Shown here: positions 12,637 to 47,446 of the stretch, one piece after another | Layout: each line of letters starts with the position of its first letter | Position numbering within the stretch: the first letter of the stretch is position 1 | Assembly: GCA_964581365.1 (NCBI GenBank) | Contig: CAZOOF010000002.1 | Span: 9,826 to 73,825, forward strand | Source: an uncultured Chromatiales bacterium | Lineage (GTDB): Bacteria > Pseudomonadota > Gammaproteobacteria > SZUA-140 | Length of the DNA stretch: 64,000 bases | Reading direction: 5' to 3' | Notes under the pieces: model-generated | The model's input: only the letters and a program-made list of their open reading frames with translations | What the model was told of the DNA's origin: nothing | Databases searched by the model: none | Program-made: the position numbers and the translations under genes

Positions 12637-12797
12637 GATGGCGTTCAGCTTACCATGACGCTGCCGGGATGCCAGCCGTCGATTCGGGACACCGCGGCTC
12701 CCGCTTGGGTACAATCTTGAATCGCGACCCGAATTCGCGTCCCCGGGCGCAAAGCGGGCCGGCGAAACGGCACGCCGATCAGGGACACACGAACGTA

Positions 12798-13787: not shown

Positions 13788-13815
13788 GCTCCGGGGCGAT
13801 GCATCGGGGCCGCTC

Positions 13816-19459: not shown

Positions 19460-19804
19460 ATGAACGCCAAGCGCCTCTACCGTATCGCGTTTCTCAATGG
19501 CGGCAAGCTTTACGAGATCTACGCCCGCTCTGTTTCACAGAGTGAGCTGTACGGATTCGTCGCGATCGAGGAGATCGTTTTCGGCGAAAAATCGGCCCTG
19601 GTGGTCGATCCCGCCGAGGAACGGCTGAAGAGCGAATTCGCCGGAGTCCGTCGCAGCTACGTCCCGCTGCATGCCGTGGTCCGCATCGACGAGGTCGACA
19701 AGCAGGGGACGGCGAAAATCAGCGCCACCGGCGAGGGCAAGATCACGCCGTTCCCAGGCACCTTCTATGGCGCGGGCAAGCCGCCGGAATCGGGTGACGC
19801 CTGA
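19460..19804 (+). CDS. DUF1820-family small protein.
   Basis: [22 protein letters not shown]…VVRIDEV is a conserved hypothetical widespread in gammaproteobacteria. The family name is recalled, not searched. Confidence 0.55.
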
Positions 19805-20784
19805 TCGCCGTCGCGCGCGCAGCGGAAACCCAGATCGAGAAACCGCGCCGCAGGATGCAGCGGATAGCGATAGGCCGCGCGGTAAAAGTGGCTGATGACG
19901 TAGTGACCGAGCCCGCCCCAGCCGCCGCCACGGGCGACCTTGAGCCTTTCACCCTCAGGTAGTTCGAACTCAGAGCCTTCGTACGGTGCATACCAGTCGT
20001 CCACCCACTCCATGACGTTTCCGGCCATATCGTAGGCGCCGTAATATGATTTTCCGGCTTCGATTGAACCGACCGGACGCAGGCCCGCTTCCTGACCGGC
20101 GATCACCCGCTCCCGGCTCCAGGTATCTCCCCAGGGAAACTCACGCCCGTCGGGCCCCCGGGCCGCTTTCTCCCACTCCTTTTCGGTCGGCAACCGCTTT
20201 CCGGCCCACTCGCAATACAGGCGCGCGTCCTGCCAACCGACTCCGGCGACGGGCAGCGAATCCTGTTCCCGGCGCTTGCGCTCGATGAGGTCAAGCACGG
20301 CGCCCCGATCCAGGTCTGCGAGTTCGCCTTCAATGCCGAACATGTCGAGCGCCAGCCCCCGCAATTCCTCCACACCGAGATCGGCGGCTTCGAGAATCTC
20401 ACGCGTCAGCAGATAACCGCTGCTTTGCCAGCCGTCCGGCACCCAATGATCGGTCTCGATCACGAAACGGCTGTATTCGAGATTCGTCACCTCATGACGA
20501 TCGATGAAGAAGGTATCGAGATGGAGACGGCGCTGAGGCGTCTCGTCGAGGTATGGCGCCTTGTTGAGCCCGAATTCCGCGAGATCAGGGCCGCCCGCGG
20601 CGCTCGCCGGGGTTCCAAACAGAAACCCGCCGGCCGGCACCGGAACCATGTCGCCGGCGCTTGCCCCGGTCGCCGCCATGAGGAGCCCCGCCGCAACGAT
20701 CAGGGCTCGAGCACCGGTATGATCGGCGGTGTTCGGGGTCACCACTTCCTCCTCTAGCGCCATCGGGCGGGCCGCGCGAAGCAC
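19765..20784 (-). CDS. Formylglycine-generating-enzyme (FGE/SUMF1) family protein, exported or membrane-anchored.
   Basis: FGE-sulfatase domain motifs (…[11 protein letters not shown]…[18 protein letters not shown]…RGGGW…). N-terminal hydrophobic segment. Confidence 0.8.
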
Positions 20785-20933
20785 AGTCCGGGAATCAGAT
20801 GGATCAGATTACCTGTCACGCCTGCATGGTGAAAGAAGAATCAGACACCCGGAGCCATCCGGCAGCGCAGAGATCACGGTCCAAGTCAGGCGGATGAGCA
20901 AAACACTCCTGCGTGGCGCCTGCACTGGTCGTC

Positions 20934-21971
20934 TCAGTCCTGCGCGTCGCTGGCGCAACGGAAACCGAAGGTATCGTTTCGGACCCGTGCACTGAAGAAG
21001 CCGCGGTTGTAGACCGGGGCAGAAATACCACATTTGTAGAAGGAGCAATCCCACCAGGAACCGCCCTTGAGCACCCGATAGATTTCGCCGTAGTTCTCGG
21101 ACGGGCGGTCATTTCCCGGATACGGCTTATACCAAGAAGCGGTCCACTCCCAGACGTTACCGGTCACATCGTGCAGCCCATAGGGACTGGCGCCCTGCGG
21201 AAACGCGCCGACCGGCGTCGTATCTCCCCTGCGCTCGAGCGCCGACCAGCGCACAGGCGTATTGGCGCGGACGATATCGAAGTACTCACCCCAGGGGAAC
21301 GGCCGCCCATCGGTGCCGCGCGCAGCCTTCTCCCATTCGGTTTCGGTGGGCAGGCGCTTGCCTGCCCATGCACAGTAATCTCTGGCATCGAACCAGGAGA
21401 CCTGCACCACCGGATGATCCGCCTTCCCCGGCGGATGGCCGCGCCCCTCGAAATGTGCCGGCGCTCGCCGGTGGGTGGCCTCGATGAACTGCTGGTACTG
21501 AAGATTGGTCACCGGATAGCGATCGATGAGGTAATCGCCCAGGTAGACGACATGCTGCGGACCTTCGTCGGAAAAGCGCTCGTCGGTGCCCATGATGAAT
21601 TCACCGGCGGGAATGCGGATCATCGGGCCCGGATCGGCGCCGAAGCGGGAGCCTTCGTAATATTGAGGTCCTTGCAGACCCATGGCGTCATCAGCTCCAC
21701 CCCCGCCGGCGGCGACACCCTCCGCAACCGGCAGCGAAGACGCAGGGATGCCATCGGTGTGGCAAGCCAGGCAACCGCGGCTCTTCAGTTCTGGCGCAAA
21801 CACGCTGGCGGTATGACACTGCTCGCAGCGGGAAGCCTCTCCGCCGTGGTGTTCGATATCGTGGCCACGGGAGCCGGCCGGCGTCGTATCGGCGGCGAGC
21901 ACCGCCACCCCCGGCCCAACCGCCAGAGCGCAAGCAATGTACAGATGAAGGGTCAGCAGAGTTCGAGTCAT
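20934..21971 (-). CDS. FGE/SUMF1-family protein fused to an N-terminal di-heme c-type cytochrome region (CEQCH, CLACH), secreted.
   Basis: Signal peptide MTRTLLTLHLYIACALA, two CxxCH motifs, then an FGE domain (…YPVTNLQYQQF…[18 protein letters not shown]…GGSW…). Paralogous to the neighbouring gene. Confidence 0.8.
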   Translation of the reverse strand: MTRTLLTLHLYIACALAVGPGVAVLAADTTPAGSRGHDIEHHGGEASRCEQCHTASVFAPELKSRGCLACHTDGIPASSLPVAEGVAAGGGGADDAMGLQGPQYYEGSRFGADPGPMIRIPAGEFIMGTDERFSDEGPQHVVYLGDYLIDRYPVTNLQYQQFIEATHRRAPAHFEGRGHPPGKADHPVVQVSWFDARDYCAWAGKRLPTETEWEKAARGTDGRPFPWGEYFDIVRANTPVRWSALERRGDTTPVGAFPQGASPYGLHDVTGNVWEWTASWYKPYPGNDRPSENYGEIYRVLKGGSWWDCSFYKCGISAPVYNRGFFSARVRNDTFGFRCASDAQD

Positions 21972-22046
21972 CGCCAGCCAGATGCACGAGGCCTCGCGAA
22001 CGGCCCGGCAAGCCGCAATGATATCATGCGCTCCGCCGGGCATCGG

Positions 22047-29565: not shown

Positions 29566-29823
29566 ATGAGCACTCGCGCGTTTGCTGCCATGCTACCCCT
29601 CCTCGCACCGTCGCTGGCGGTCGCGGAGCTTGAGCTGCCGCCGGAAAACGCTCGCCCGCTGTCGGAAATCGTGGAAGCAGTAGAGAGCCAGGGCTTCGTT
29701 CCTTTCGAGCTGGAGTTCGAAGACGGTCGCTGGGAAATCACGGCATTTCGGGAAGGCAAGCCGGTGAGGTTGTACGCTGATCCGCGCAGCGGCGGCATTT
29801 CCGAGCGGGACAGCCGCCGCTGA
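29566..29823 (+). CDS. PepSY-domain small periplasmic protein.
   Basis: Signal peptide, then the …EIVEAVESQGFVPFELEFEDGRWEITAFREGKPVRLYADPRSG PepSY pattern. Confidence 0.6.
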   Translation: MSTRAFAAMLPLLAPSLAVAELELPPENARPLSEIVEAVESQGFVPFELEFEDGRWEITAFREGKPVRLYADPRSGGISERDSRR

Positions 29824-29830
29824 GCTCCTG

Positions 29831-32800
29831 TCAGGAGGCGCGTAGCTGACGTTCGAATTCGTCCGGCGTCAGCGCCGGACTGCGCAGGAAGCCCTGATAA
29901 CGGTCGCAGCCGAGGGCTGCGAGGAAGGCAAGCTGACGCTCGTTCTCGACCCCTTCGGCGAGAATCCTGAGGTTCAGCGCCTGACCCATAGCGACGATGG
30001 CGCGCACCAGTTCGCAGTCACTGGGATCATCTGGAATTCCTTCGATGAAGCGCCGGTCGATTTTCAGCACATCCAGCGGGAAACGCTTGAGATGGGCAAG
30101 GGAAGAGTAACCGGTGCCGAAATCGTCGATCGCCAGCCGGATACCGAGATCACGCAAACGGCCCAGTATGATTTCGGCCTCCTCGGCATGGGTCATGATC
30201 GCGGTTTCGGTGAGCTCGAACTCCAGATGCCGGGGTGGGAAACCGGTATCCTTCAGGAGGCGATCCACCTGCTCATGAACATCCGAGTGCAGTAACTGGC
30301 GCGGAGACAGATTGACTGCCAGCGTCAGCGGCGGCAGGCCCTCATCCAGCCAGCGCCTTCCTTGCCGGCATACTTCACGCAAGGCCCAGCTGCCAATCTG
30401 CGCGATCATCCCCGTTTCTTCGGCGAGCGCGATCCATTCCGCGGTCGGCATCAGCCCGCGCTCGGGATCGTACCAGCGCAGCAGCGCTTCGGCGCCTATT
30501 ATCCGCCCGCTGGCAACCTCCACCTGAGGCTGATAGCAGACCTGCAATTGGCCCGCCCCGAGGGCGCGGTGCAACTGTGACTGCATCTCCACCCGCATTC
30601 GGGACGCTTCGGTCATTTCGTCGGAGTAGAACCGGACCTGCCCCTGTCCTTCGCCCTTGGCCCGATAAAGCGCGGCGTCAGCCTGTTGCAGCAGCAGCTC
30701 GGCGGTACGGCCATGCTCCGGGCACAGACTGACGCCGACACTGACATTGATCCGCACCTCCGAACCGTTGGACAGGTGCAGGGGTTCCGCAAGCTGGCGA
30801 ATGATCTTGGAGGCGATGCCGCTCACCTCACTGACCCCGCTGATGTCCTCCAGCAGGATGCAGAACTCGTCGCCGCTGAATCGCGCGACGGTATCGGCTG
30901 AACGCACGCAACGGCGCAGGCGCTCCGCCGACAGCCGCAGCAACTCATCGCCGGCCAGATGACCGAAGCTGTCGTTGATTTCCCCAAAGCCGTCCAGATC
31001 GAGCATGAGCACTGCCAGTCCGCCACCCCGCCTGATACGGACTTCTATCGAATGTTCCAGCCGGGTACGCATCAGCAGGCGATTGGGAAGGCCGGTGAGG
31101 GCATCGTGATGCGCCTGATGAGCAAGCTTGGCTTCAGATGCCTTGAGCCGCGAGATATCGGTGAACACCCCGACGTATCCGCTGATGCGTCCGCCCTGAT
31201 CGCGCAGGACGCTGATGCTGAGCAGGGAAGGAAAGATCTCTCCGCTCTTGCGCCGATCCCATACCTCGCTGCGCCAGTGACCGGTCTCGCGCAACCCACT
31301 CCACAGCTCGCGGTAGAAATCGAGGCCATGCCGACCGGAGCGGAACATCTCCGGGGTATTCCCCAGGATCTCCGCTTCCTCGTAACCCATCATGCGGCAG
31401 AGGGCTGGATTGACCATGGTGATCCGACGATCGGCATCAGTGACCAGAATACCGTCACCACTCCTTTCGAAGACCATCGCCGCCTGACGCAATCGTTCTT
31501 CGTTGCGCCTCCGCTCGGTGATATCCTGTGCCGTTCCGATGCCTTTCAACAGGGCACCGTGCTCATCGAAAGTCAGGTTCGCGCGCTCGCGTATCCATTT
31601 CTCCTCGCCGTTTACGACGATCCGGTGCTCCAGATCGTACTCCTCACCCCGGAGTGCCCGTTTCCAGGCCTCGTCCACCATGCGCTGGTCGTCGACGTGC
31701 ACGCAGCCGAGAAAGCGCTCATAGGTAAGCGTCTCACCAACCGGGATGCCGAAGATGCGATAGCATTCGGGTGACCAGATCAGAACGTTCCGGCGGATAT
31801 CCAGCGACCAGCTTCCGATGCGGGCGACTCTCTGCGCGCGATTGAGATCTGCCTCGCGCTCCCGTAGCGTTTCCTCATAGGCCCGGCGTTCGCTCACATC
31901 CTGGATGCTCGCAATCAGATACTCGGGGACGCCGGCCTCGTCGACCAGACACTGCACATGAATAGACGCGTAAACAGGGGTTCCGTCGCGATGCAGCAGC
32001 CGCAGCTCTGCCTGTGAGCCCGCGACATCACCCGCCAGGACACGGCGCAGGCGAAGCGGATCACCCCGGCGATCAGCAGGGTGCAGAAGGGTTCTCCAGT
32101 CGCATTGCAGCAGCTCCTTCTCCGAGCGGCCGAGCATCTGGCACAGACAGGCATTGACGTTGACCGGCCTTCCCGTACGCGTGGAGAACATCGCGATGCC
32201 GGTGAAAGGCATATCGTGAAACGCCTGCACCAGACGATTCTTTTCCGCCTGCGCTGCCATGAGCGCGTCCTGGGTGCGCCGGCGATAGCGGCGCTGCACG
32301 TAGAAGACCGCGCTGACCAGCGGAAACATCGCTGCCAGGGCCGCCAGCGTTACCCACATGACGAAGCGGCGCAGCGGCGCCATGATTGCGCCCTGGTCGA
32401 TCAGCGTCATCACCAGCCAGTCGGTCGTCCCCACCGGATGATATGCTGCAAGGATCGCAGCGCCATTGCCATTGCGACCTGAAACCAGCCCCGGTCTGCC
32501 GGGATGCGCCTCCGCAAGCAGTCCTGGCGCAGAAAAACGCCTCGATTCGCCCAGTATCCTGATTCCGCCTTCACCCTGACGATAGACGATCGCGGTGCGA
32601 TCGGAGCCCGCCGGGAAAGCCTGCTCCAGCAACTGGCGAAGGCGATGCGCGTCACTCCGCATCACCAGCGTGGCCACCGGTACGCCGGGACGCGCACTGT
32701 CACTCAACGGCACTATCCAGTCGAGGTACGGCACGTTCGCTTCGCTGTAATGCAGGAACGGTCCAACACCGGCACCGCCACGCACCAGATTCATCAGCTG

Positions 32801-33427
32801 GGGTGGAACGCCTACGTAAGCTCCGCGCAGCAGGACTGCATTCCCGTCCGGATTGAACAGCAGCATCGCCCGATAGCGGTCGCCTCGCAGCATCGAATCG
32901 AGACGATCGACCACCGGCTCGAATCTGGCGCGGGTACCGTCATAGAAGAAGTCCGCGATCTGGCGCGCGAAGCCAGAACTTCCCATCAGCATCTCAGCGT
33001 CAGCGCTCCGTTCGTCGAGCCAGTTCTCCATTTCGCTGGCTATGCGCGCGGCATCGGCCGCCAGCGTACGCTGCGCCTCCCACTCGAGCTGCTCGGAGTG
33101 CTTGCGTGCCATACCGATATCGGTCACCGGCACGATCATGGCAAGACCGATCAGAATTGCGGTGAGGTGCCTGGGAGAGGCCCAGATCGGACCATCGCTG
33201 GAGGAGTGGCGCGTCCAGCGATGAAGGAGGTAGAGCACGCCGGCAGTTACGGAAACGAAGATGAGGGCCTTCGCCACTCCGATGCGCGGCAGCGCGCTTT
33301 GGTTGCCTACGACGACGGTGGTAAGCCAATCGGCACTGGCTGCCCAGAGGGCGACGAAACAGGCATACAACACCACGACGGCTGCGGGGCCGTAGACGCG
33401 GACTTGTGTGCCTGAAGAGGAGTGCAT
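29831..33427 (-). CDS. Multidomain c-di-GMP sensor protein: N-terminal multi-TM region with a periplasmic sensing domain, three PAS/PAC domains, GGDEF (…FSGDEF…) and EAL (…EGVEN…, …KIDRRFI…) domains. About 1198 aa.
   Basis: Domain motifs read from the translation. AGGAGA RBS before the ATG at 33427. Divergent from the decaheme gene with 113 bp between starts. Confidence 0.85.
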   Translation of the reverse strand: MHSSSGTQVRVYGPAAVVVLYACFVALWAASADWLTTVVVGNQSALPRIGVAKALIFVSVTAGVLYLLHRWTRHSSSDGPIWASPRHLTAILIGLAMIVPVTDIGMARKHSEQLEWEAQRTLAADAARIASEMENWLDERSADAEMLMGSSGFARQIADFFYDGTRARFEPVVDRLDSMLRGDRYRAMLLFNPDGNAVLLRGAYVGVPPQLMNLVRGGAGVGPFLHYSEANVPYLDWIVPLSDSARPGVPVATLVMRSDAHRLRQLLEQAFPAGSDRTAIVYRQGEGGIRILGESRRFSAPGLLAEAHPGRPGLVSGRNGNGAAILAAYHPVGTTDWLVMTLIDQGAIMAPLRRFVMWVTLAALAAMFPLVSAVFYVQRRYRRRTQDALMAAQAEKNRLVQAFHDMPFTGIAMFSTRTGRPVNVNACLCQMLGRSEKELLQCDWRTLLHPADRRGDPLRLRRVLAGDVAGSQAELRLLHRDGTPVYASIHVQCLVDEAGVPEYLIASIQDVSERRAYEETLREREADLNRAQRVARIGSWSLDIRRNVLIWSPECYRIFGIPVGETLTYERFLGCVHVDDQRMVDEAWKRALRGEEYDLEHRIVVNGEEKWIRERANLTFDEHGALLKGIGTAQDITERRRNEERLRQAAMVFERSGDGILVTDADRRITMVNPALCRMMGYEEAEILGNTPEMFRSGRHGLDFYRELWSGLRETGHWRSEVWDRRKSGEIFPSLLSISVLRDQGGRISGYVGVFTDISRLKASEAKLAHQAHHDALTGLPNRLLMRTRLEHSIEVRIRRGGGLAVLMLDLDGFGEINDSFGHLAGDELLRLSAERLRRCVRSADTVARFSGDEFCILLEDISGVSEVSGIASKIIRQLAEPLHLSNGSEVRINVSVGVSLCPEHGRTAELLLQQADAALYRAKGEGQGQVRFYSDEMTEASRMRVEMQSQLHRALGAGQLQVCYQPQVEVASGRIIGAEALLRWYDPERGLMPTAEWIALAEETGMIAQIGSWALREVCRQGRRWLDEGLPPLTLAVNLSPRQLLHSDVHEQVDRLLKDTGFPPRHLEFELTETAIMTHAEEAEIILGRLRDLGIRLAIDDFGTGYSSLAHLKRFPLDVLKIDRRFIEGIPDDPSDCELVRAIVAMGQALNLRILAEGVENERQLAFLAALGCDRYQGFLRSPALTPDEFERQLRAS

Positions 33428-33540
33428 GGGTCTCCTATCGGCACTTACGAGCGAGGATATGAATGACGTGATGCGAGTAAACCAGCGTAACCCTTTGCTT
33501 GCATCGGTCGATATCTTGGGCAACCCACCGGATTCATGAC

Positions 33541-34404
33541 ATGCCTTCGCTTATTCTTATAGTTATTCTGCTGGCGCTGTCTTCTCTTGCTTCAGCCGGA
33601 GATCGCGCTCCGGAGTACGTCGGAGACCGCGAATGCAGCTATTGCCACAAGCTGGAAGCGCGTCAGCACGCGAACAGCGATCACGGCCGCCTGGTCAGCG
33701 GACGCGTCGGCGAAGCTCGCAGTTGTGAAGCTTGCCACGGCCCGGGCAGCCGCCATATCACCGTAGTGGGTGACCCCTTGTACCGCGGACCGCTGCATAT
33801 CCGCACCGGCGCGGACCTGAAACGCGATCCGGAAGCCACATGCCTGGCCTGCCACGAGAACGGCTCGCGACTGCACTGGCATGTCAGCGCCCATGCGGCA
33901 TCCGATCTCGGCTGCACGAGCTGCCACAGCATACATGATTCCGGCAAGACCACCGACTGCGGCGCCTGCCACCGTCGCGAGAGTACCCGATTGCAGCGCT
34001 CCGCACACATGCCGGTGCGGGAAGGATCCATGCAGTGTGCCGACTGCCACGACCCTCACGGCGGCGACGGACCAGCGGCGCTGCGTGCGGGATCGGTCAA
34101 CGAGATCTGTCATCGCTGTCATGCTGACAAGCGTGGCCCCATGCTGTTTGAACATCTTCCGGTACGGGAGGACTGCACGCTGTGCCATGACCCCCATGGA
34201 TCCAGCCATCGCAGCATGCTGGTCCGGAAACCGCCGACGCTGTGTCAGCAGTGCCATATGCTCGGCGGACATCCGAGCTGGCTTTACGATAGCGCCGAGC
34301 TCGCCAACGCCGATATCAGCCAGTACGGCGCGCGGAACTGTCTGAACTGTCATTCACGAATCCACGGCTCCAATCATCCCTCGGGATCACGGTTTCAGCG
34401 CTGA
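33541..34404 (+). CDS. mtoA: Decaheme c-type cytochrome of the MtrA/DmsE/MtoA/PioA family (periplasmic component of a porin-cytochrome conduit).
   Basis: Signal peptide MPSLILIVILLALSSLASA, then exactly ten CxxCH motifs in about 260 residues (CSYCH, CEACH, CLACH, CTSCH, CGACH, CADCH, CHRCH, CTLCH, CQQCH, CLNCH). The stop overlaps the start of the downstream barrel gene (TGATG). Confidence 0.85.
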   Translation: MPSLILIVILLALSSLASAGDRAPEYVGDRECSYCHKLEARQHANSDHGRLVSGRVGEARSCEACHGPGSRHITVVGDPLYRGPLHIRTGADLKRDPEATCLACHENGSRLHWHVSAHAASDLGCTSCHSIHDSGKTTDCGACHRRESTRLQRSAHMPVREGSMQCADCHDPHGGDGPAALRAGSVNEICHRCHADKRGPMLFEHLPVREDCTLCHDPHGSSHRSMLVRKPPTLCQQCHMLGGHPSWLYDSAELANADISQYGARNCLNCHSRIHGSNHPSGSRFQR

Positions 34405-36614
34405 TGCAGCCCGGGTTTCCACCACTCATCCTTCATCCCTTCCGGCGCCGGCGGCTTCGCCTGGCGATCGGCGCCATGCTTCTGTGCGCTGACGCGGCTG
34501 CGGCCGTACAGCTGAGCGGCCTGATCGAAATCGGCGGACTGTATCTCACCGACGAACGCTCCGGCGCGCAGGGCTCATACGGTCCGGCGATTCATCAGGG
34601 AATACATCCGCTCGGCAGCCTCGATCTGAGTGTCGATGGCGAGGGCAGTCGGACCCGCATCCAGGGATCCATGACCAGCCCGGACTTTGGAGACTTCGGC
34701 GTCACGCTGCTCGCGAAGGATGGCGATAGCGTCCGCCTCGACTACCAGCGAATGGCTCGCCGGGGAGACGACGGACTTTCATTATTGCAGAGCGGCGCAG
34801 ACATTCTGACCCTGCCCCCAGGCTTCGTGCCCGCGAACACGACTCAGGATTTCGATCTGAGTGTCCTGCAACCGGTGGAGCTCGGTACCAACCGGGAGCG
34901 CTATGGGATTGCGGCGCGTCTGTTTGCGGGAAACGACTGGAGAACGGATGTCTCGGTACGCGAGGAACGGCGCCGCGGGGTGCAGGAAATCGGTGCAATG
35001 GTTGGCGTCGATCCGCTCGAGGCGCGCTCCATCATTCTTCCCGCACCCGTGGATCAGCAGTTGCGTGAGCTGGATGCCGCCCTGTCCTGGGAGCGGGACG
35101 GCCGTCAGTTGCGCATTGCGTATCGCGGATCTCTGTTCACCAACCAGCACCAGGCGCATCGCTGGGAGGTACCCTTCCTGGCTGCAGGCGACGATCCGCT
35201 TCCCGATACCGGTCGGCTCGGCACATCGCCGGACAATCATCATCACAGCATTTCCATCGATGCGGGCACCCGTCTCGGCAAGACGTCCCGTCTTAGTGCG
35301 AGCGCCAGCCTGTCGCGCATGCAGCAGGATGAGGACCTCCTCCCATACTCGACCGGCGCATCGCTCACGGCGCTGCCGCGCAACTCGGCCGAGGCCCGTG
35401 TCGATGTGCTTCGCCTGGCGCTGAACGCAAGTGCCCGCCCCCTGGATCGGCTGACACTGAGCGCCCGCCACCGCTACTACCGCAGCGACGACCGTATACC
35501 GCGGACCCGCTTCGAGCCCGTGCTTGCCGATACCATAGCGGGTCGCGCCACCATCAGCCGGCCCTACGACCACTTTCAGGCCAAAACACTTGTGCGGGCA
35601 GTGTATCGGGCAGCGACCGGATCGCGGATCCTGACGGAATGGACCCATGACATCGTCGGCCGCGATCTCCCTGGCAATGGGGGACACACCCGTGAAAACG
35701 GTCTGAAACTTGGTCTGCAACAGACGATCACGAGCCGGGCTCGTGCCCGCCTGTCCTTGCTGCATGCCGATCGCAACCGGCACGGACACGACGCCGTAAT
35801 CATCGACCCCACTGCTGCGGCCTCCTGTCCTGAAATAGTACTGGTGGATCCGGATCCCGATGGCGGAGCGCCGCGGGAGATCGATCGTTGCATCGGACAG
35901 CATCCGGATATGAGGCGGTTCATGCTGGGCGACCGCATCCGCCAGCGGCTCCAGACCGCAATCGACTGGTGGCCAACGGACGATGTGGATTTCGAACTGG
36001 GCTGGAGCATCAGCCGGGATCGGTACCGCGATCAAGCGGTATTCGACGATACTGTCTTCGGTCTGAGGGACAGCCGGGAAAGGATGCTGTACACCAACCT
36101 CAATTGGTCAGCACATGAATCATGGTCGATCAGCATTGCTTATTCCCGCGAGTATCTCGATGCGGCGCAGACCGGGCGGGACATGGCGCATGACCAGCCG
36201 TCAGCGCCGATCGACTCCAGCACCAACTGGCGGGCCCGCTCACATGACCGCGCCGATACCATCAGCGCGGGCCTTCGTCTCGACCTCCCCGACGGACGCA
36301 CCCGCCTGGCGCTGGATCTGGCTCACATTCGCGAACGCAATCGAATCCGGCTCGAAAGCCGCCTGCCTGCAGCCCAGCTTCCCGATGATGGCGCCAGGCG
36401 GCAGTACGCAGAGCTTCATGGAGAGCACGAGCCCGATGACCGGATCCTGCTGAAGGCGGGAGTGCGCTGGGAAGCGGTCATGGCGACCGACCGCAGCGAC
36501 AGTGGCATCGAAGTCGGAGAGATGCCCGGATTGAACGGAGTGCTGGCCTTGCGCAGTGGTGACACCGACTACGATGTCCTGCTGATCTGGAGTTCGATCA
36601 CATACCTTTGGTAG
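34404..36614 (+). CDS. mtoB: MtrB/MtoB/PioB-family outer-membrane beta-barrel porin partner of the decaheme cytochrome.
   Basis: 736 aa. N-terminal signal peptide, amphipathic beta-strand periodicity throughout, and a C-terminal …SITYLW aromatic terminus. Translationally coupled to mtoA. Size matches MtrB/PioB. Confidence 0.75.
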   Translation: MQPGFPPLILHPFRRRRLRLAIGAMLLCADAAAAVQLSGLIEIGGLYLTDERSGAQGSYGPAIHQGIHPLGSLDLSVDGEGSRTRIQGSMTSPDFGDFGVTLLAKDGDSVRLDYQRMARRGDDGLSLLQSGADILTLPPGFVPANTTQDFDLSVLQPVELGTNRERYGIAARLFAGNDWRTDVSVREERRRGVQEIGAMVGVDPLEARSIILPAPVDQQLRELDAALSWERDGRQLRIAYRGSLFTNQHQAHRWEVPFLAAGDDPLPDTGRLGTSPDNHHHSISIDAGTRLGKTSRLSASASLSRMQQDEDLLPYSTGASLTALPRNSAEARVDVLRLALNASARPLDRLTLSARHRYYRSDDRIPRTRFEPVLADTIAGRATISRPYDHFQAKTLVRAVYRAATGSRILTEWTHDIVGRDLPGNGGHTRENGLKLGLQQTITSRARARLSLLHADRNRHGHDAVIIDPTAAASCPEIVLVDPDPDGGAPREIDRCIGQHPDMRRFMLGDRIRQRLQTAIDWWPTDDVDFELGWSISRDRYRDQAVFDDTVFGLRDSRERMLYTNLNWSAHESWSISIAYSREYLDAAQTGRDMAHDQPSAPIDSSTNWRARSHDRADTISAGLRLDLPDGRTRLALDLAHIRERNRIRLESRLPAAQLPDDGARRQYAELHGEHEPDDRILLKAGVRWEAVMATDRSDSGIEVGEMPGLNGVLALRSGDTDYDVLLIWSSITYLW

Positions 36615-38133
36615 CCCGTACCGCAGACCTCCGGTCGCCTGCGCTGGCCGAGGCCATGACTACCCGGTTGCGTCCATCGCTCTTGGCCATGTAGAGCGCC
36701 ATGTCGGCGGCCCGGATCAGTTCCTCACCGGCGCCGGCGTGACGCGGCAGCTCGGCCACGCCGATGCTGACGGTCAGATGCAAGGTATCACCCGCGCGAT
36801 CATCCAGAGGACGAGCCGAGATCGCCATCCGCAGCCGCTCAGCGATCGCCAGAGCGGTTTCGGCGCGGGTGTCGGGAAGCGCAATGATGATCTCCTCGCC
36901 ACCATACCGCGCCACCAGATCCTGCTGACGGGCTTTCTCGCGAACGACCGCACTGACCATGCGCAGTGCGTCGTCGCCGACCTGGTGCCCGAACGAATCA
37001 TTGATGTTCTTGAAGTGATCGACATCCATCATCAGCACCGATAGCGGCCGATCCGGCCCATGTGCGGCAATCAGACGATCGAATTCCGAATTGAAACTGG
37101 TGCGATTGAGCAGGCCGGTGAGTCCGTCATGATTTGCCAGGCGTTCCAGCTTGCTCTGGTCCTCCTGCAGTTTGTTCGCCATGTCATTGAACCCGATGAC
37201 GAGGTCATCGATCTCGTCGCCGCTCAGGCGGCGCCGGGGCAGTTCGAAGCGCGCGCCCAGGTCGCCGGCCGACAGACGCTCCATGGCACCGCGCAGCTTG
37301 TTGATGTTGCGGAACACCAGGCGATCGAATACGACGAAGATCAACACCAGGCTTGCCAGGCTTGCCAGGATCTTCAGCACCAGCTGTGACAACAGGGTGC
37401 CGTGGATGTCACGGTTGACCTCGGCGATGGAAAACTTCAGCTCGACCGCTCCAAGCACCTCGCCTTCACGCGCATCGAAGTGGCAACCGGTGGCCTCGGA
37501 GCAACCGCTCCTGCGCACCTGATAGGGCGCAACCATGCGCATGAGATCGCCATCTATGGTGAACTCCGTCTGCGCCGTTTCCAGCACTCTTCGTTCGAGT
37601 TCATCATGCGGTCGCGAACGGGGATCCACCTCGAGCGGCTGATTATAGCTGCGGACCAGGTCCCGGGAACGCGCGATCTCGAAGCTCAGCTCGTTCATCG
37701 CGACGATCATGTCGGCTCGCTCGTCGGGATCTCTCACCTCCACCAACTCGCGCTCCAGGCGAGCCAACTCAGCTTCACTATCATGTATATAGTTGAGTTC
37801 TCTCGGGAGATCGATTTCCCGGCGAACCCGCTCGAAGATCTCGTTGACCCGGGGTCCGCGGATGACACGTATGGACTCAACCTCCGAGAGTTCGCGCGAA
37901 AGATCCTCGAAGTAGGAAAACCGGGCGCTCATCTTGCCCTCACGCATCAGCGCATTGAGGGCGACGCGGACACCCTCGCCGGCGGCCCCCCCCCAGCGCT
38001 GCACCTCCTGCATCACCAGCTGACGTGCCTGCTGCACCTCCAGCCATACCGCCGTCACCACGAATGGCAGCCAGATCAGCCCGATCGTCAGGATCAGCTT
38101 GGTGCTCAGGCGGCTTGAGATCGGTCTTTTCAC
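36598..38133 (-). CDS. Membrane diguanylate cyclase: periplasmic sensor domain (about 230 aa, contains C-x5-C-H 'CSEATGCH'), TM, HAMP, then GGDEF (RYGGEEI).
   Basis: N-terminal TM (LILTIGLIWLPFVVTAV), periplasmic region, second TM (LVLKILASLASLVLIFVVF), HAMP, and GGDEF motifs (DGLTGLLNR…DVDHFKNIND…RYGGEEI). It lies 7 nt downstream of the tetraheme cytochrome gene. Confidence 0.85.
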   Translation of the reverse strand: MKRPISSRLSTKLILTIGLIWLPFVVTAVWLEVQQARQLVMQEVQRWGGAAGEGVRVALNALMREGKMSARFSYFEDLSRELSEVESIRVIRGPRVNEIFERVRREIDLPRELNYIHDSEAELARLERELVEVRDPDERADMIVAMNELSFEIARSRDLVRSYNQPLEVDPRSRPHDELERRVLETAQTEFTIDGDLMRMVAPYQVRRSGCSEATGCHFDAREGEVLGAVELKFSIAEVNRDIHGTLLSQLVLKILASLASLVLIFVVFDRLVFRNINKLRGAMERLSAGDLGARFELPRRRLSGDEIDDLVIGFNDMANKLQEDQSKLERLANHDGLTGLLNRTSFNSEFDRLIAAHGPDRPLSVLMMDVDHFKNINDSFGHQVGDDALRMVSAVVREKARQQDLVARYGGEEIIIALPDTRAETALAIAERLRMAISARPLDDRAGDTLHLTVSIGVAELPRHAGAGEELIRAADMALYMAKSDGRNRVVMASASAGDRRSAVRATKGM

Positions 38134-38140
38134 GCGAGCA

Positions 38141-38722
38141 TCACCGGTAGCTGCGATGGTAGCTGCGGGTCTTTGTTAGGCGCTCCTCGAAATCGAATTC
38201 GTATTTCCCGTCGAGCGCGGGCTGGAACGGGGTGTCTTCGTGCTCATGACAGGCGGTACATACCGACGGATCATCCGACCCATAGCGCTGCCCGGCGCTT
38301 ATCAGCTCATCGCGATCGAGACTGCCACGGCGGGTTTTGTGGATCTCCCGATATTTCTCCCCAGCGCCGTGGCACATCTCACAACCGATGCCGGCGCGAT
38401 TGGGCGTTTCGCGCGCGCTCACATAGCCACCAGGCAAGCGAAAGCCCGTCGTATGACAGCGCAGGCAATCCTCTTCGGTCGTGTAGTCGCGCGACGGATC
38501 GAGATCTGCTTTTTTCTTCGGAGCACGACGCTGCCCCGGCTTGAGCAGCTCGAAGGCGCGTGCATGCGAACTCCGGCGCCAGTCTTCGTATTGGGCCTTG
38601 TGACACATGGCACAGCTCTCATGACCGACATACTCTGGACCCGGACCCGAAGCGGCGTTCAGACCGGAATGAGCAGCCGCAGTCCCGGCAACCACCAAAG
38701 CCAGGACCACCCAGCGGGCCAT
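38141..38722 (-). CDS. Periplasmic tetraheme c-type cytochrome (193 aa).
   Basis: Signal peptide MARWVVLALVVAGTAAA, then four CxxCH motifs (CAMCH, CLRCH, CEMCH, CTACH). Its N-terminus (PEYVGHESCAMCHK) parallels that of the decaheme protein (PEYVGDRECSYCHK). Confidence 0.8.
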   Translation of the reverse strand: MARWVVLALVVAGTAAAHSGLNAASGPGPEYVGHESCAMCHKAQYEDWRRSSHARAFELLKPGQRRAPKKKADLDPSRDYTTEEDCLRCHTTGFRLPGGYVSARETPNRAGIGCEMCHGAGEKYREIHKTRRGSLDRDELISAGQRYGSDDPSVCTACHEHEDTPFQPALDGKYEFDFEERLTKTRSYHRSYR

Positions 38723-38892
38723 GGCCACCGAGGCCTTTACGCTTCCCGCGACGATATGCGTTATCTTCCCTTGAATGTGTATAGCCACAGGATGTTATCG
38801 TTATACCTGTGCTGGGACTTGAATAGGCCCAATGGGTGAGGAGCCGCCATGGAGTGCATGTGCCTGATCGGCGCGATGGACGAGGCAGGGCC

Positions 38893-39732
38893 ATGGACAC
38901 CACGGCGCGACTGAGACGTCTGACTCCGGCGGGCGTCGAGGTCGCGCTGCACGGGTGCTTCCTGAGTCACCGGCTGCATGAGCGCGGGGCATGCGGAAGA
39001 CCGTTCGTCTACACCAATTTCATCGCCAGTCTGGATGGACGCATTTCATGGAAGAACCCCGCGGGCTTTCGTGAGGTACCGCCGGCGTGCAGCAATGACC
39101 ATGACCAGCGCCTCTACCATGAGCTGGCGGCCCAAGCAGATATCCTGATTACCAGCTCACGCCACCTGCGCGCAGTCGCTGCCGGGCGCGGGGCTGGAAT
39201 GTTGACACTTGGAGAGCATGCGGCGGAGCTGGCGAACTGGCGCCGCGCCAGCGGTCTGACGGAGCGCCCTCGCGTGGCGGTCGTGAGCGCGAAGCTGGAT
39301 CTCCCGCCCAGGGAGCAGCTGCCGGATATCGCCGGCGAAATCACAGTACTTACCTGGGGCCACGCCGAACCGCGCCGGCTCGCCGAGGCTCGCGCTCGGG
39401 GCTACGAGGTTCAGGTGTGCGGCGGTGGTCCGCACATCGATGGTCTGCAGCTGCTGGCCGCATTGAACCAGTGTCAGGCGATCTATTCAGTGGCGGGTCC
39501 GCAACTGCACACGGCCCTGCTCCGGGCCGGACGGATGGATCGGATCTATCTGACCCTGGTGCCGCTGCTCCTCGGCGGAGACGACTATGACACCCTGACC
39601 GCGGGTACTCCGCTATCTCCCCCGCCTTGCTACGAGCTTAGCGAACTGTGGCAAGACGAATCGGAGCCGAAGGGTTGTGGTCAGCTGTTCGCGGTTTTCG
39701 ACTACCGCACCAGCGCCCGGGATCAGAAATAG
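38893..39732 (+). CDS. RibD C-terminal domain/dihydrofolate-reductase-like family protein.
   Basis: …FIASLDGRISW…LYHELAAQADILITSSRHL… matches the RibD_C/DHFR-like reductase fold pattern. Substrate unknown. Confidence 0.6.
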   Translation: MDTTARLRRLTPAGVEVALHGCFLSHRLHERGACGRPFVYTNFIASLDGRISWKNPAGFREVPPACSNDHDQRLYHELAAQADILITSSRHLRAVAAGRGAGMLTLGEHAAELANWRRASGLTERPRVAVVSAKLDLPPREQLPDIAGEITVLTWGHAEPRRLAEARARGYEVQVCGGGPHIDGLQLLAALNQCQAIYSVAGPQLHTALLRAGRMDRIYLTLVPLLLGGDDYDTLTAGTPLSPPPCYELSELWQDESEPKGCGQLFAVFDYRTSARDQK

Positions 39733-40208
39733 AGGCGAGCGCCAATCGCCAGATTGATGTCCAGATCCGTATCCGGAGCAACATCGAGAATCGGCACGAA
39801 CTCGCCAAAGAGTTCGACCGGCTGCCGGGGGAAGTGGTAGGTGATGCCGAGGGGAATGCGTATTCCAAACAGCGTGTCGTCCTTGTTCCGGCCGCGACCA
39901 TCGTCGTCTTCGAACTTGATCCTGCCGCCGAGCCCGTAGAACAGGGATACCCGGCCTTCAAAGTCCGCGGGGCGGAGCATGTTGAAGTCGTGAATCAGAT
40001 AATCGGCATGGAACTGAAACGAGTCGTTCTCGGAGAACGACCACGCCGCGCCGGCGTCAACCGCATGGGTATTATTGAGCCAGCTCTTGACGGTCAGACC
40101 GGTAGGTTCGCCGATGATGATGCCGGCACCGAAAGTCCCCTGCGCCTGTGCGCTGCCCCAGCCCAGACCGAACGCCAGCGCAACGATGATTCCCGTCCTG
40201 TTCTTCAT
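39723..40208 (-). CDS. Small outer-membrane beta-barrel protein (OmpW-like), 161 aa.
   Basis: Signal peptide MKNRTGIIVALAFGLGWGSAQA, alternating hydrophobic strands, and a C-terminal …GARLYF. Confidence 0.65.
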   Translation of the reverse strand: MKNRTGIIVALAFGLGWGSAQAQGTFGAGIIIGEPTGLTVKSWLNNTHAVDAGAAWSFSENDSFQFHADYLIHDFNMLRPADFEGRVSLFYGLGGRIKFEDDDGRGRNKDDTLFGIRIPLGITYHFPRQPVELFGEFVPILDVAPDTDLDINLAIGARLYF

Positions 40209-40312
40209 TGGTTGCTTCTCCCCGCGAAGCGCAAGAATACCGGAGGGCGGAAACAAGGGAAAGGGCAGAGGGATGTGAGCAAGCCCGCGTGATGCGTCCT
40301 CATCCCCGCCAA

Positions 40313-40795
40313 TCAGTCGGTCCTCTTCCCTTTCTCGCCTTCGCGCCGCGGCGGCTGATTGATCAACAGCCAGTACATGCCGAGCTTTTGCACGGCCGCC
40401 GAGAAGCGCTCGAAATTCACGGGCTTGACGATGTAGCTGTTGACTCCCAGCTCATACGAGCCGACCACGTCCTGCAGCTCCATCGATGAAGTCAGGATGA
40501 CCGTGGGGATCATGCGCGTGCGGTCGTCGCTCTTGATCCGCCGCAAGACGTCCAGCCCGTCGACCTTCGGCAGCTTCAGATCCAGCAGGATCACCTTGGG
40601 CGTGTCATTGATGCTGCGCCCGGCGTAGCTGCCCTCGCAGAAGATGTAATCCAGCGCCTCCTGGCCATCGCGCGCAACGATGATCTCATTGCTCAGACCA
40701 GCCCTCCTCAGCGCACGCAAGGTAAGCTCGATGTCGTCAGGATTATCCTCGACCAGCAGAATCTCGATGGCCGGATTGAGCTTTGCATTATTCAT
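40313..40795 (-). CDS. Single-domain (receiver-only, CheY-like) response regulator.
   Basis: ILLVEDNPDD…ILLDLKLPKVDG…KPV… gives the receiver Asp pocket. No output domain. Confidence 0.8.
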   Translation of the reverse strand: MNNAKLNPAIEILLVEDNPDDIELTLRALRRAGLSNEIIVARDGQEALDYIFCEGSYAGRSINDTPKVILLDLKLPKVDGLDVLRRIKSDDRTRMIPTVILTSSMELQDVVGSYELGVNSYIVKPVNFERFSAAVQKLGMYWLLINQPPRREGEKGKRTD

Positions 40796-40954
40796 GGTGC
40801 CGGATCCTCAGTGCGGGTCACGCCGCGCCCCGGTCAGTCCGGGACGCTGCAAGCATGACGGCAACGTTTCGCCCACGCGTCGCCCTCAGGAAAGCACTGC
40901 CCGTTCCTTGGGGCAGCGACCGGTTGCTGGATCCTGCGGGTTGGTTTCCTTGCG

Positions 40955-41446
40955 TCATCTTGCAGCTGGACGGCCGCAGGCGCATTGCGGATTATCAATG
41001 CCTCCGCTCCAGGATTGTGCGGCGGCGCTGGCGGCAGCGAGCAATGCCCCGGGCAGTGCGCCATCGCGCGGGAATGCAGCAGTCCCCCAGCGCAGCACCG
41101 GAGCACCGGCGGCAAACCGTGATGCCGTTCGGGCGGCGCAGCTCAGCGCCCGGATCCGGATGGGAAGACGGTCGGCGGGTATTCCCGGAAGGAGTATCAG
41201 GATGTCGCCGGCGTCACGGAGGCAGACACGATCTCCGGCGCGCACGGCCAGACCGATGGCATACAGCAGTTCGCACCGATATTCGCCGCCACGAGGATGG
41301 ACACCGGGATCGAGGAGCACGACACCGAGCGGGTATCGATGGCGCGATGCCCGCGCCAGCTCTTCCCGGAGGATGCGGCGTACCGATGGCCCGACCATCT
41401 CCGGCCACGCCCCCCGGACAGAAAACCCATGGACTTCAATGTCCAT
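40955..41446 (-). CDS. Hypothetical protein resembling a degenerate or truncated GGDEF domain.
   Basis: …LGVVLLD…DRVCLRDAGDILILLPGIPADRLPIRIRAL… parallels …LSVLMLD…DLVARYGGEEFVVLLPET…AERIR… with the GG(D/E)EF motif replaced by AGDIL. Coding call chosen over the overlapping + strand R-rich ORF. Confidence 0.4.
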   Translation of the reverse strand: MDIEVHGFSVRGAWPEMVGPSVRRILREELARASRHRYPLGVVLLDPGVHPRGGEYRCELLYAIGLAVRAGDRVCLRDAGDILILLPGIPADRLPIRIRALSCAARTASRFAAGAPVLRWGTAAFPRDGALPGALLAAASAAAQSWSGGIDNPQCACGRPAAR

Positions 41447-41542
41447 CGCACGGCGGCCCTCGCCATCCGCTTCTCCGTGTAATCAAATAACTATACCGTG
41501 AAACGATTCGTGTCAACGCCTTTTTGTCTAGAATCAGGCGCC

Positions 41543-41830
41543 ATGTCACGGAAAATCAATCCCTTCGGTTTGCGTATGCCGGCGGAACTCCGCCGTCATC
41601 TGGAAGAATCGGCCCAGGCGAACCGGAGAAGCATGAATGCCGAGCTGGTACTGCGCTTGCAGGAAAGCCTGGATGCACACCCGCTCCTGATCCCGGAAAT
41701 ACGGGAGCCGGCGGAGAATTACGCGCTGACGGCGAAGGAAGCCGCGCTGCTCTCGGCCTGGGAGTCCCTCAACCGGAGAGGCCGACGGGCGCTGCTCGAC
41801 CTGCTGCCCACACTCGAGACGAAACGCTGA
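41543..41830 (+). CDS. Arc/MetJ-type ribbon-helix-helix DNA-binding protein (orphan).
   Basis: …FGLRMPAELRRHLEESAQANRRSMNAELVLRLQESL is an Arc-like RHH motif. Confidence 0.6.
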   Translation: MSRKINPFGLRMPAELRRHLEESAQANRRSMNAELVLRLQESLDAHPLLIPEIREPAENYALTAKEAALLSAWESLNRRGRRALLDLLPTLETKR

Positions 41831-46297: not shown

Positions 46298-46579
46298 CGT
46301 TGGATTCCCTCCGGATTGCGATCATGACATCAGGATCGGGCGGCGACAAGCCCGTCCGGCCGCCCGCCACCAGCGGAAGCGGATGAAACCGGTCAGCTTT
46401 TTCTGTAAAATTCCGTCGCATAAAAAAGCGGTCTGGCCGGTCGCCGGCAAGGATCGCGCATGAGCCGGACCAACGGGGATCCATCCATACCCAGCAGCGA
46501 ACATCGTCACCTGCGCCCGATGCCGTGGGCAGGCCGATCCGGCCCCGAATCACCAATGTCTTTTGAGGAGATCTGCAGC

Positions 46580-47446
46580 ATGTCAGTCAAACATCCGGTC
46601 GTTGCCGTCACCGGTTCCTCGGGCGCGGGCACCAGCACGGTAAAGGCCTCGTTCGAGCACCTTTTCCGGCGTGAAGGTATCAAGGCCGCCATCGTCGAAG
46701 GCGATGCCTTCCATCGTTATGACCGCAACGAAATGAAGAAGGCGGTCGAGGAAGCGGCGCAGCAGGGCAGGACGCTGAGCCACTTCGGATCGGAAGCCAA
46801 TCTGTTCGAGGAATTGGAAGCGCTGTTCCGCAGCTACAGCGAAACCGGCACGGGCAAGGTCCGCAAGTACCTGCATGACGAGGAAGAGGCGGCCCCCTAC
46901 AAGCAGAAGCCCGGCACATTCACCCCCTGGGAAGATCTGCCCGGCGGCACCGATCTGCTGTTTTACGAAGGCCTTCATGGCGGCGTGGCCACCGAAACGG
47001 CCAATGTGGCCAAGTGGGTGGATCTGCTGATCGGCGTGGTGCCGATCGTCAACCTGGAGTGGATCCAGAAGATCCACCGCGATACATCCATGCGCGGCTA
47101 CTCGGCCGAAGCGGTGACCGATGCGATCCTGCGTCGCATGCCGGACTACGTGAAGACGATCACCCCGCAGTTCTCGCGTACCGACATCAACTTCCAGCGC
47201 GTGCCGGTGGTCGACACCTCCAACCCATTCATTGCTCGCGATATCCCCACGCTGGATGAAAGCTTCGTCGTCATCCGCTTCCGCTTCCCGGAAAAGCACG
47301 ACTTCCCGTACTACCTGTCGATGCTGAAGGATTCCTGGATGTCGCGTCCGAACACCATGGTCGTACCGGGCGGCAAGATGGGAGTGGCGATGGAGATCGT
47401 CCTGCGTCCGATCATCCACGACATGATGGAAAAGAGCCGCCGCTGA
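46580..47446 (+). CDS. prk: Phosphoribulokinase (Calvin-cycle PRK/CbbP).
   Basis: MSVKHPVVAVTGSSGAGTSTV… P-loop N-terminus, 289 aa as in bacterial PRK. Confidence 0.9.
   Translation: MSVKHPVVAVTGSSGAGTSTVKASFEHLFRREGIKAAIVEGDAFHRYDRNEMKKAVEEAAQQGRTLSHFGSEANLFEELEALFRSYSETGTGKVRKYLHDEEEAAPYKQKPGTFTPWEDLPGGTDLLFYEGLHGGVATETANVAKWVDLLIGVVPIVNLEWIQKIHRDTSMRGYSAEAVTDAILRRMPDYVKTITPQFSRTDINFQRVPVVDTSNPFIARDIPTLDESFVVIRFRFPEKHDFPYYLSMLKDSWMSRPNTMVVPGGKMGVAMEIVLRPIIHDMMEKSRR

Follow-up and report, generated by a model that had tools for sequence, protein, structure and literature searches.

A c554-family cytochrome and a candidate haem-Cache sensor cyclase beside the mtoAB conduit genes of an uncultured Chromatiales bacterium

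We analyzed a stretch of 64,000 nucleotides from an uncultured Chromatiales bacterium (contig CAZOOF010000002.1 of assembly GCA_964581365.1; hereafter, the window), which carries the mtoAB genes for a porin-cytochrome conduit among genes related to signaling by c-di-GMP (cyclic dimeric guanosine monophosphate). A preliminary description of this DNA placed four c-di-GMP genes around the conduit and suggested that the conduit is regulated within an attachment circuit. All four genes exist, and one of them, a receiver, has no c-di-GMP domain. By comparing the locus with related genomes, we identified a conserved core of the cluster that consists of mtoAB, a tetrahaem cytochrome of the c554 family and a predicted sensor diguanylate cyclase. 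Below we describe these genes, their conservation, the sensor domain, the lineage-specific neighbors and the possible role of the cytochrome-sensor pair as a periplasmic redox read-out.

The mtoA gene (33541-34404, plus strand) encodes a periplasmic decahaem cytochrome of the MtoA/MtrA family with ten CxxCH motifs, which matches Pfam Paired_CXXCH_1 and the NCBIfam model of DmsE-family decahaem cytochromes (219 bits, cutoff 192). The start of the following gene, mtoB (34404-36614, plus strand), overlaps the mtoA stop by 1 nt. The product of mtoB is an outer-membrane porin of the MtoB/MtrB/PioB family (Pfam MtrB_PioB, E = 2e-82) that scores 228 bits with NCBIfam OMP_MtrB_PioB, slightly under the cutoff of 240. 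This order, with the gene of an MtrB/PioB-family porin behind that of a decahaem cytochrome, is the arrangement of a porin-cytochrome conduit.

The HAMP-GGDEF sensor of the preliminary description is encoded on the opposite strand (36598-38133, minus strand; Pfam GGDEF, E = 1e-45; HAMP, E = 6e-7). The 3' ends of this gene and mtoB overlap convergently by 17 bp (36598-36614), which leaves no space for terminators and could lead to transcriptional interference or antisense pairing. The overlap is kept in three relatives, at 17 bp in loci L001 and L002 and at 13 bp in L088. The protein consists of a first transmembrane helix, a periplasmic Cache-type domain, a second transmembrane helix, a HAMP linker and a GGDEF domain. 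The latter contains an RQQD inhibitory site (I-site) and the motif RYGGEEI, with I at the fifth motif position, which is F, L or I in sister sensors. The guanine contacts are canonical (N378 and D387, nine residues apart, in INDSFGHQVGDD). Motif and contacts together are those of a competent diguanylate cyclase, and the predicted output at this locus is c-di-GMP synthesis. A Hypr-type GGDEF that synthesizes cyclic GMP-AMP, as in Geobacter GacA, was considered and rejected, because both GGDEF domains of the locus have Asp and not Ser or Thr at the specificity position, a feature that excludes the Hypr type (PMC6456294); the sensor cyclase reads GGEE at its motif.

Beside the sensor gene lies a gene that was missing from the preliminary description (38141-38722, minus strand, with a longer ORF to 38788). 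It encodes a tetrahaem cytochrome with four CxxCH motifs (Pfam Cytochrome_C554, E = 8e-27), for which gene callers use the 193-aa start. The stop codon lies 7 nt before the start of the sensor gene on the same strand, and the two genes are probably co-transcribed because of this short spacing. The product matches cytochrome c554 of Nitrosomonas europaea (PDB 1bvb and 1ft5) over its full length (E = 2e-32, aa 31-193). With NCBIfam Cyt554_Nsmonas it scores 136 bits, where the equivalog cutoff is 400, so we regard it as a homologue of c554 and not as an orthologue with the same function. Proteins of the c554 family are electron carriers, and the N. europaea protein has a five-coordinate haem. No gene for MtoD or CymA/ImoA adjoins mtoAB, and the c554 homologue is the only other multihaem ORF nearby.

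Conservation of the cytochrome-sensor pair beside mtoAB

In the closest relatives, loci L001-L004 with 88% and 74% MtoA identity, the whole region is kept, including the genes for UvrD, Tag, UDG, GATase, RibD_C, Arc, DUF2237 and GIY-YIG proteins. Conservation among them is uninformative, because the housekeeping flanks are syntenic as well. At the other end of the range are 80 other mtoA loci from species-representative genomes, which encode MtoA homologues of 37-48% identity. A GGDEF ORF occurs within 10 kb in only five of these loci and is adjacent in none, and on these counts the idea that MtoA/MtrA loci are generally linked to c-di-GMP was rejected.

The informative class lies between these extremes and includes L085-L087, L088 (GCA_016716465.1) and L089 (GCA_964605155.1), with MtoA identities of 49-51%. 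Their flanks are entirely different from those of the window (pheST, IHF, MerR or SOD genes), and all five loci contain mtoA and mtoB followed by a convergent HAMP-GGDEF gene with a c554-family cytochrome gene. None of them has the PAS-GGDEF-EAL protein, the receiver, the degenerate GGDEF or the PepSY protein of the window. The synteny comparison that the preliminary description proposed is thus split: the HAMP-GGDEF sensor is found beside mtoAB in L001-L003 and L085-L089, and at 49-51% MtoA identity it is kept there together with the cytochrome, whereas the other genes are not. Since the pair stands beside mtoAB in a different genome context, we take its position as evidence of a functional link.

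To avoid a sample biased towards mtoAB, further loci were fetched via the sensor rather than via MtoA. Clustering of the sensors at 90% identity resulted in 23 lineages, 16 of which were retrieved through the sensor alone. In 20 of the 23 lineages (13 of the 16 sensor-retrieved ones), the gene immediately upstream of the sensor gene, and on its strand, encodes a high-scoring c554 homologue. The mtoA or mtoB genes were found in the available flank of 13 lineages (6 of the 16, several of whose contigs are too short to judge).

Three gene orders were observed among the mtoAB-linked loci. First, a c554-sensor pair convergent to and downstream of mtoB is found in the window and in L085-L089, all with a GGDEF output. 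Second, the colinear order mtoA-mtoB-c554-sensor occurs in L093 (a complete 2.75-Mb genome), L095, L096, L098 and, partially, L094. In every locus of this group whose contig includes the output end, the output is a methyl-accepting chemotaxis protein (MCP); the L098 sensor ORF runs off the contig end. Third, the colinear order c554-sensor-mtoA-mtoB is characteristic of L006 and L092. In L096, a single strand (4623-14805) encodes in succession mtoA, mtoB, c554, the C-x5-CH sensor MCP, an MCP with a CxxCH sensor and a third MCP.

In a neighbor-joining tree of MtoA homologues, all sensor-linked MtoA proteins fall into one region, inside which the loci with GGDEF output form one group. A linkage that persists through rearrangement and output swapping is our main argument for a functional connection between the conduit and the pair. 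Because the same sensor domain is fused to MCP and kinase outputs, often beside mtoAB, the conserved theme appears to be sensing and not c-di-GMP as such. The variety of outputs also suggests that information flows from the periplasmic electron pool to c-di-GMP, which is more plausible than a control of the conduit by c-di-GMP.

The periplasmic sensor domain and its putative haem site

The sensor domain covers residues ~35-245 of the HAMP-GGDEF protein (37399-38031, minus strand). In the orthologues, an N-terminal region of ~250 aa lies between two hydrophobic helices, and their alignment shows that C211, C217 and H218 are invariant. These residues belong to the motif CSEATGCH (37480-37503, minus strand), which contains all the cysteines of the domain, two in number, and is a candidate site of haem-c attachment of the form C-x5-CH. 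The domain is extracytoplasmic and has a single-Cache fold with a helical-hairpin insert of ~65 aa.

A word-indexed protein search with the domain (37384-38133) returned nothing in spite of orthologues at 86% identity. This result is a sensitivity miss and not evidence of absence, because an exhaustive search with HMMER, which covered 1.84 billion representatives, found 61 relatives, 22 of them below 1e-30; the domain is therefore rare. The 23 closest relatives and the window protein were combined in an alignment of 24 sequences. Exactly two Cys residues, in C-x5-CH, are present in 22 of these sequences, and the other two contain C-x8-CH. Across the 24 sequences, C217-H218 is invariant and C211 is conserved in at least 90%. 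According to Pfam, the outputs of the relatives are MCP (11), histidine kinase (7) and GGDEF (4, two with EAL), usually connected by a HAMP linker.

No NCBIfam model matched the sensor domain, and the only PDB matches to a profile of the family were coiled coils, which were picked up by the helical insert. The connection to known sensors was made in steps. Weaker relatives of the domain are devoid of the ~65-residue helical segment and show CxxCH where the domain has C-x5-CH. When the profiles of the C-x5-CH group and this CxxCH group were aligned (Prob 100%, E = 6e-47), C217-H218 fell on the CH of CxxCH. The window domain itself matches an intermediate, P0160, at E = 5e-5 among 1.8e9 proteins, and P0160 matches both Pfam Mcp40H-20_sensor and PDB 3B47 (GSU0582) with the CxxCH motif aligned. 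Homology to the sensors of the GSU0582/Tll0287 type is thus reached only through intermediates. In addition, M63 and M68 of the window protein are invariant and lie in a helix equivalent to the Met-containing helix of GSU0582 and GSU0935. These two proteins bind haem c covalently, with a Met ligand that is switched on reduction (PMC8396549). In the sCache_heme family, the haem motif is inserted between β3 and β4 and reads CxxCH in 99% of members (2026 preprint, PMC12889525), whereas all 24 examined members of the present family have C-x5-CH or C-x8-CH in its place. Taken together, the alignments suggest that the domain is most likely a divergent haem-c Cache sensor with a haem attached covalently at C-x5-CH.

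The unusual motif is also the starting point of a different explanation, in which the cytochrome is the periplasmic carrier of the Mto pathway that replaces MtoD/CymA, the sensor cyclase is a co-transcribed passenger with an unrelated signal, and its two Cys and one His bind a metal such as Fe(II) or act as a thiol switch instead of binding haem. It agrees with the electron-carrier character of the c554 family, with the c554 gene being the sole other multihaem ORF near an mtoAB pair that has no MtoD/CymA-like gene, and with the low model confidence of the motif loop; moreover, C-x5-CH is not a documented haem site in the open-access literature. Nevertheless, the cytochrome gene tracks the sensor and not mtoAB: it directly precedes the sensor gene in 20 of 23 lineages, among them the ones whose flank lacks mtoAB, and high-scoring c554 homologues were not found at the sensor-less mtoAB loci. 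The motif aligns with the CxxCH of proven haem-c sensors, and it combines a constant CH with a Cys-Cys spacing of either 5 or 8, a pattern typical of haem sites. On balance, we regard this explanation as quite improbable and a haem-binding sensor as the better account of the motif.

The kinship with known haem sensors raises the question of the ligand. It is conceivable that the haem-Cache domain binds nitric oxide (NO) or another diatomic ligand, that the c554 homologue handles or buffers NO, and that the cyclase answers nitrosative conditions accompanying Fe(II) oxidation coupled to nitrogen-oxide respiration. The link to MtoAB would then be ecological and not a direct read-out of electron flow. 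The fused, signaling sCache_heme domains show properties of NO sensors (PMC12889525), and GSU0582 and GSU0935 bind NO whether oxidized or reduced, and CO in the reduced form (PMC8396549). The partner of the sensor is a true c554 homologue, and many c554-sensor pairs have no mtoAB nearby. On the other hand, an NO sensor leaves unexplained the embedding of the pair in mtoAB operons, in three gene orders and within one MtoA subfamily. Genes for nitrogen-oxide reductases were found neither in the window nor in the inspected flanks, and the haem motif and the insert are unlike those of the characterized NO sensors. We consider sensing of NO unlikely, and a sensor of redox state remains the preferred reading of the domain.

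Lineage-specific neighbors of the conduit

Divergently from mtoA is transcribed the gene of a large PAS-GGDEF-EAL protein, whose ORF (29831-33523, minus strand) encodes 1198 aa from the ATG at 33427 (gene 29831-33427). The protein matches Pfam EAL (E = 1e-74, 233 of 236 profile positions), GGDEF (E = 4e-44), three PAS stretches and, weakly, dCache_1. Its N-terminus contains hydrophobic segments and a Cache-like periplasmic region. The GGDEF motif is changed to SGDEF, with the first Gly of the canonical GG(D/E)EF replaced, and the RSAD I-site is retained. The EAL signature is present in full (EALLRW, AVNLS, ELTE, DDFGTGYSSL, KIDRRF, EGVE and YQGF), and the best NCBIfam match is the phosphodiesterase DibA (661 bits, under the cutoff). 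These features make a net phosphodiesterase activity the likelier prediction, and the protein probably opposes the sensor cyclase. In L001 (GCA_034002745.1, 6297-9886) the orthologue is called as two genes of 336 and 786 aa, as a result of either a frameshift or stop in that metagenome-assembled genome or an assembly error.

The start codons of the large gene (33427) and mtoA (33541) are separated by 113 bp (33428-33540), as was noted in the preliminary description, and gene callers give the same spacing in the relatives. The mean column identity of this region with L001 and L002 is 81%, and the conserved blocks include CTATCGGCAC, TAACCCTTT and CGGTCGATATC; despite these blocks, there is no recognizable operator in the region. 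No inverted repeats were found in it, and its single consensus promoter-like site (33536-33563) is not above the shuffle expectation. The same holds for the promoter and terminator consensus scan of 29.4-41.9 kb, in which the counts were no higher than expected from shuffling. A scan of the whole window with Rfam found no c-di-GMP riboswitch or any other Rfam family.

A small predicted periplasmic protein of the PepSY_2 family (29566-29823, plus strand; Pfam PF13670, E = 2e-10) lies next to the 3' end of the large gene, in agreement with the preliminary description. A common operon was ruled out, since the PepSY gene is on the opposite strand, where it follows a GATase gene and converges with the large gene.

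The receiver-only protein is a stand-alone CheY-like domain (40313-40795, minus strand; Pfam Response_reg, E = 2e-18). Response_reg is its sole match in Pfam and NCBIfam, with no GGDEF, EAL, HD-GYP or PilZ domain, and its inclusion among the c-di-GMP genes was abandoned.

The fourth gene (40955-41446, minus strand) encodes a protein of 163 aa with no family match in Pfam (E ≤ 10) or NCBIfam. Its assignment as a degenerate GGDEF-like ORF was nevertheless borne out. A three-sequence profile aligned with GGDEF by hhalign over 139 columns (Prob 92%, P = 6e-7), and a Foldseek search of PDB with the AlphaFold model (predicted local distance difference test score 67.5) retrieved only GGDEF domains among the top 50 matches (E = 5e-5, TM-score ~0.6). 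The ORF is coding, as its substitutions relative to two orthologues peak at the third codon position, and it is also called by independent gene callers in other assemblies. ORFs overlapping it on the plus strand were considered as the true gene and ruled out, because codon-position base composition, the substitution pattern, the genes called in other assemblies and the GGDEF-like fold of the minus-strand protein all favor 40955-41446. The protein has DAGDI in place of the GGDEF motif, and the N-terminal substrate-binding elements are missing. An invariant RxxD (R69-A-G-D72) precedes the motif position by exactly five residues, which is the position of the I-site, and a role as a c-di-GMP binder is possible. 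The family is tiny: a search of 5.8 billion proteins yields four clusters.

None of the PAS-GGDEF-EAL, receiver, degenerate GGDEF and PepSY genes occurs in L085-L089, and they were found only in close relatives with syntenic housekeeping flanks. In particular, the PAS-GGDEF-EAL gene, for which the preliminary description suggested to check whether it travels with mtoAB, does so at 74-88% MtoA identity only. For the first three genes, mere neighborhood is the default reading. In its wider form, this reading treats most of the cluster as neighborhood by descent, with the three genes acting on unrelated targets. It conforms with their restriction to syntenic regions, with the 75 of 80 other mtoA loci where GGDEF ORFs are missing within 10 kb, and with the negative outcome of the scans for a shared regulatory motif or a riboswitch. 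As an account of the cluster it is nonetheless rather improbable, since it leaves the c554-sensor cassette unaccounted for. Two further observations point away from it. The first concerns L085-L088, where the immediate 5' neighbor of mtoA, on its own strand, is an HDOD-GGDEF gene whose GGEEF and RxxD are intact (8152-9687 in L085 and 8223-9764 in L088); it is unrelated to the PAS-GGDEF-EAL gene, and thus c-di-GMP enzymes have on two occasions come to occupy the slot 5' of mtoA. The conserved blocks of the 113-bp divergent region are the second observation. The idea of a conduit within a c-di-GMP circuit was therefore retained for the HAMP-GGDEF gene and dropped for the PAS-GGDEF-EAL, receiver, degenerate GGDEF and PepSY genes.

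The concentration of c-di-GMP genes at the conduit is real. In a six-frame phmmer search of the 64 kb, the two GGDEF ORFs (the 1198-aa and HAMP-GGDEF proteins) and the single EAL domain of the former are the only ones detected. The background around the 80 other mtoA loci is 5 GGDEF ORFs per 1.29 Mb, and a rough post-hoc Poisson estimate for two GGDEF ORFs in 11.6 kb at this rate is P ~1e-3.

Between the cytochrome gene and the receiver lie genes for RibD_C (38836-39732, plus strand) and a DUF3996 barrel (39723-40256, minus strand), both assigned by Pfam, whose 3' ends overlap convergently by 10 bp (39723-39732), the second overlap of this type in the region. The gene inventory at 29.5-41.5 kb ends with an Arc gene (41498-41830, plus strand; Pfam). 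The G+C content of the window is 62-66%, and its other scanned genes are housekeeping genes. Further afield, a PilS-like (6TM_PilS) histidine kinase and a receiver-Fis regulator are encoded at the window start (609-2493, minus strand). A 971-aa protein with LVIVD repeats of the beta-propeller type is encoded at 6816-9731 (plus strand). Two genes with FGE-sulfatase domains are arranged in tandem at 19765-22046 (minus strand). The second of them (20934-22046) has an N-terminal extension of ~140 aa with two CxxCH motifs, so that it may encode a fusion of a dihaem cytochrome with an FGE-sulfatase domain. A phosphoribulokinase gene (46424-47446, plus strand) hints at an autotrophic lifestyle.

Proposed role of the cassette and comparison with known systems

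We propose that the c554-haem-Cache cassette reads out the redox state of the periplasmic electron pool that MtoA serves and reports it as c-di-GMP, and we give this proposal an even chance of being right. The c554-type cytochrome would equilibrate with a periplasmic haem pool that is fed or drained by MtoA, and would in this way set the redox state of the sensor haem. A redox-linked change of haem coordination, modeled on the binding and release of Met in GSU0582 and GSU0935, would be transmitted through the second transmembrane helix and HAMP and switch the cyclase. The c-di-GMP level, which commonly governs attachment, would then bias the cell towards or away from attachment. In the window, the PAS-GGDEF-EAL protein, which shares the 113-bp control region with mtoA, would probably serve as the opposing phosphodiesterase.

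Several observations weigh against parts of this proposal. With respect to the domain, neither PF11845, PF21563 nor any other Pfam family matched it at E ≤ 10, either with residues 1-278 or with the 250-aa domain; no precedent for haem attachment at C-x5-CH, nor the term CX5CH, was found in the open-access literature; and a special lyase may be required for attachment at this motif. The sensor may also respond to a ligand instead of a redox state, because the studied signaling sCache_heme proteins act as NO sensors (PMC12889525). With respect to the linkage, 79 of the 80 other mtoA loci are devoid of the sensor, the sensors of L091, L102 and L103 have no upstream c554 gene, and for at least seven c554-sensor pairs there is no mtoAB at a distance of 9 kb or less, so the cassette is not exclusive to MtoAB. 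The MtoA tree has no support values, and three sensor-less Nitrospinae loci are nested in the sensor-linked clade. Finally, for the PAS-GGDEF-EAL, receiver and degenerate GGDEF genes, the link to the conduit rests solely on adjacency in one narrow lineage.

A bolder version of the proposal can be put forward tentatively. The cytochrome and the C-x5-CH sensor may constitute a dedicated sensor by which the cell monitors its own extracellular electron-transfer chain, reporting the redox poise of the periplasmic haem network of one MtoAB subfamily. The report would be delivered either as c-di-GMP, for a decision to stay on or leave a mineral or electrode, or as chemotaxis, for redox- or electro-taxis, and C-x5-CH would be a new attachment motif for c-type haem. 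The haem-c Cache/PAS sensors, cytochrome c554, MtoAB and GGDEF/EAL proteins are all described already. In the open-access literature, we did not find descriptions of the C-x5-CH variant with its helical insert, of its near-obligate pairing with c554, or of the embedding of this pair in one MtoAB subfamily.

To our knowledge, apart from a few observations in Geobacter and Shewanella, little is known of the way in which bacteria perceive their electron exchange with minerals or electrodes and then decide whether to attach, remain or move. The locus offers a concrete candidate for such sensing, a two-gene cassette of a tetrahaem cytochrome and a putative haem-Cache receptor that is tied to a porin-cytochrome conduit and has swappable behavioral outputs. 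A further point of interest is C-x5-CH as a possible new motif for haem attachment, in a family of sensors whose recognition is very recent. Even if the idea fails, the analysis separates the conserved c-di-GMP partners of the conduit from its lineage-specific neighbors.

Among the known systems, the Mto pathway of Sideroxydans lithotrophicus ES-1 (mtoA, mtoB, mtoD and cymA/imoA) shares with the locus a translationally coupled pair of a decahaem MtoA and an MtrB/PioB-family porin, whereas MtoD and CymA/ImoA are absent here. In the open-access literature on mto clusters, GGDEF, MCP/chemotaxis or c554 genes were not found described as parts of them. Cytochrome c554 (CycA) of N. europaea and the window protein both have four CxxCH motifs and are soluble periplasmic electron carriers, the latter by homology. 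Unlike cycA, the window gene is paired with a sensor and often with mtoAB, and there is no hydroxylamine oxidoreductase in its context. For the 163-aa protein, we take the closest known type to be the degenerate GGDEF receptors such as PelD and PopA, which bind c-di-GMP via the I-site. It shares with them the GGDEF fold, the loss of the catalytic motif and an invariant RxxD; in contrast, it stands alone with no partner domain, and its binding of c-di-GMP is a prediction.

The sensor domain has two relevant counterparts. With sCache_heme (DUF3365/Tll0287-like, PF11845) it shares the Cache fold and the insertion of the haem motif between the last strands. The two families differ in size, with thousands of members in sCache_heme and ~60 representatives in the window family, and the characterized fused members of the former sense NO, whereas the latter is distinguished by C-x5-CH or C-x8-CH. 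The second counterpart is the pair of Geobacter sulfurreducens chemoreceptors GSU0582 and GSU0935 (PDB 3B47 and 3B42; Pfam PF21563), for which we found no description of an upstream c554 gene or a linkage to mtoAB. Their periplasmic domains are also located between two transmembrane helices, and both the Cys-His of the haem motif and the Met-containing helix align with the window domain. The latter differs from them by C-x5-CH in place of CxxCH, by the hairpin insert of ~65 aa and by having no direct Pfam match, and its output is a GGDEF domain, whereas that of the Geobacter proteins is an MCP.

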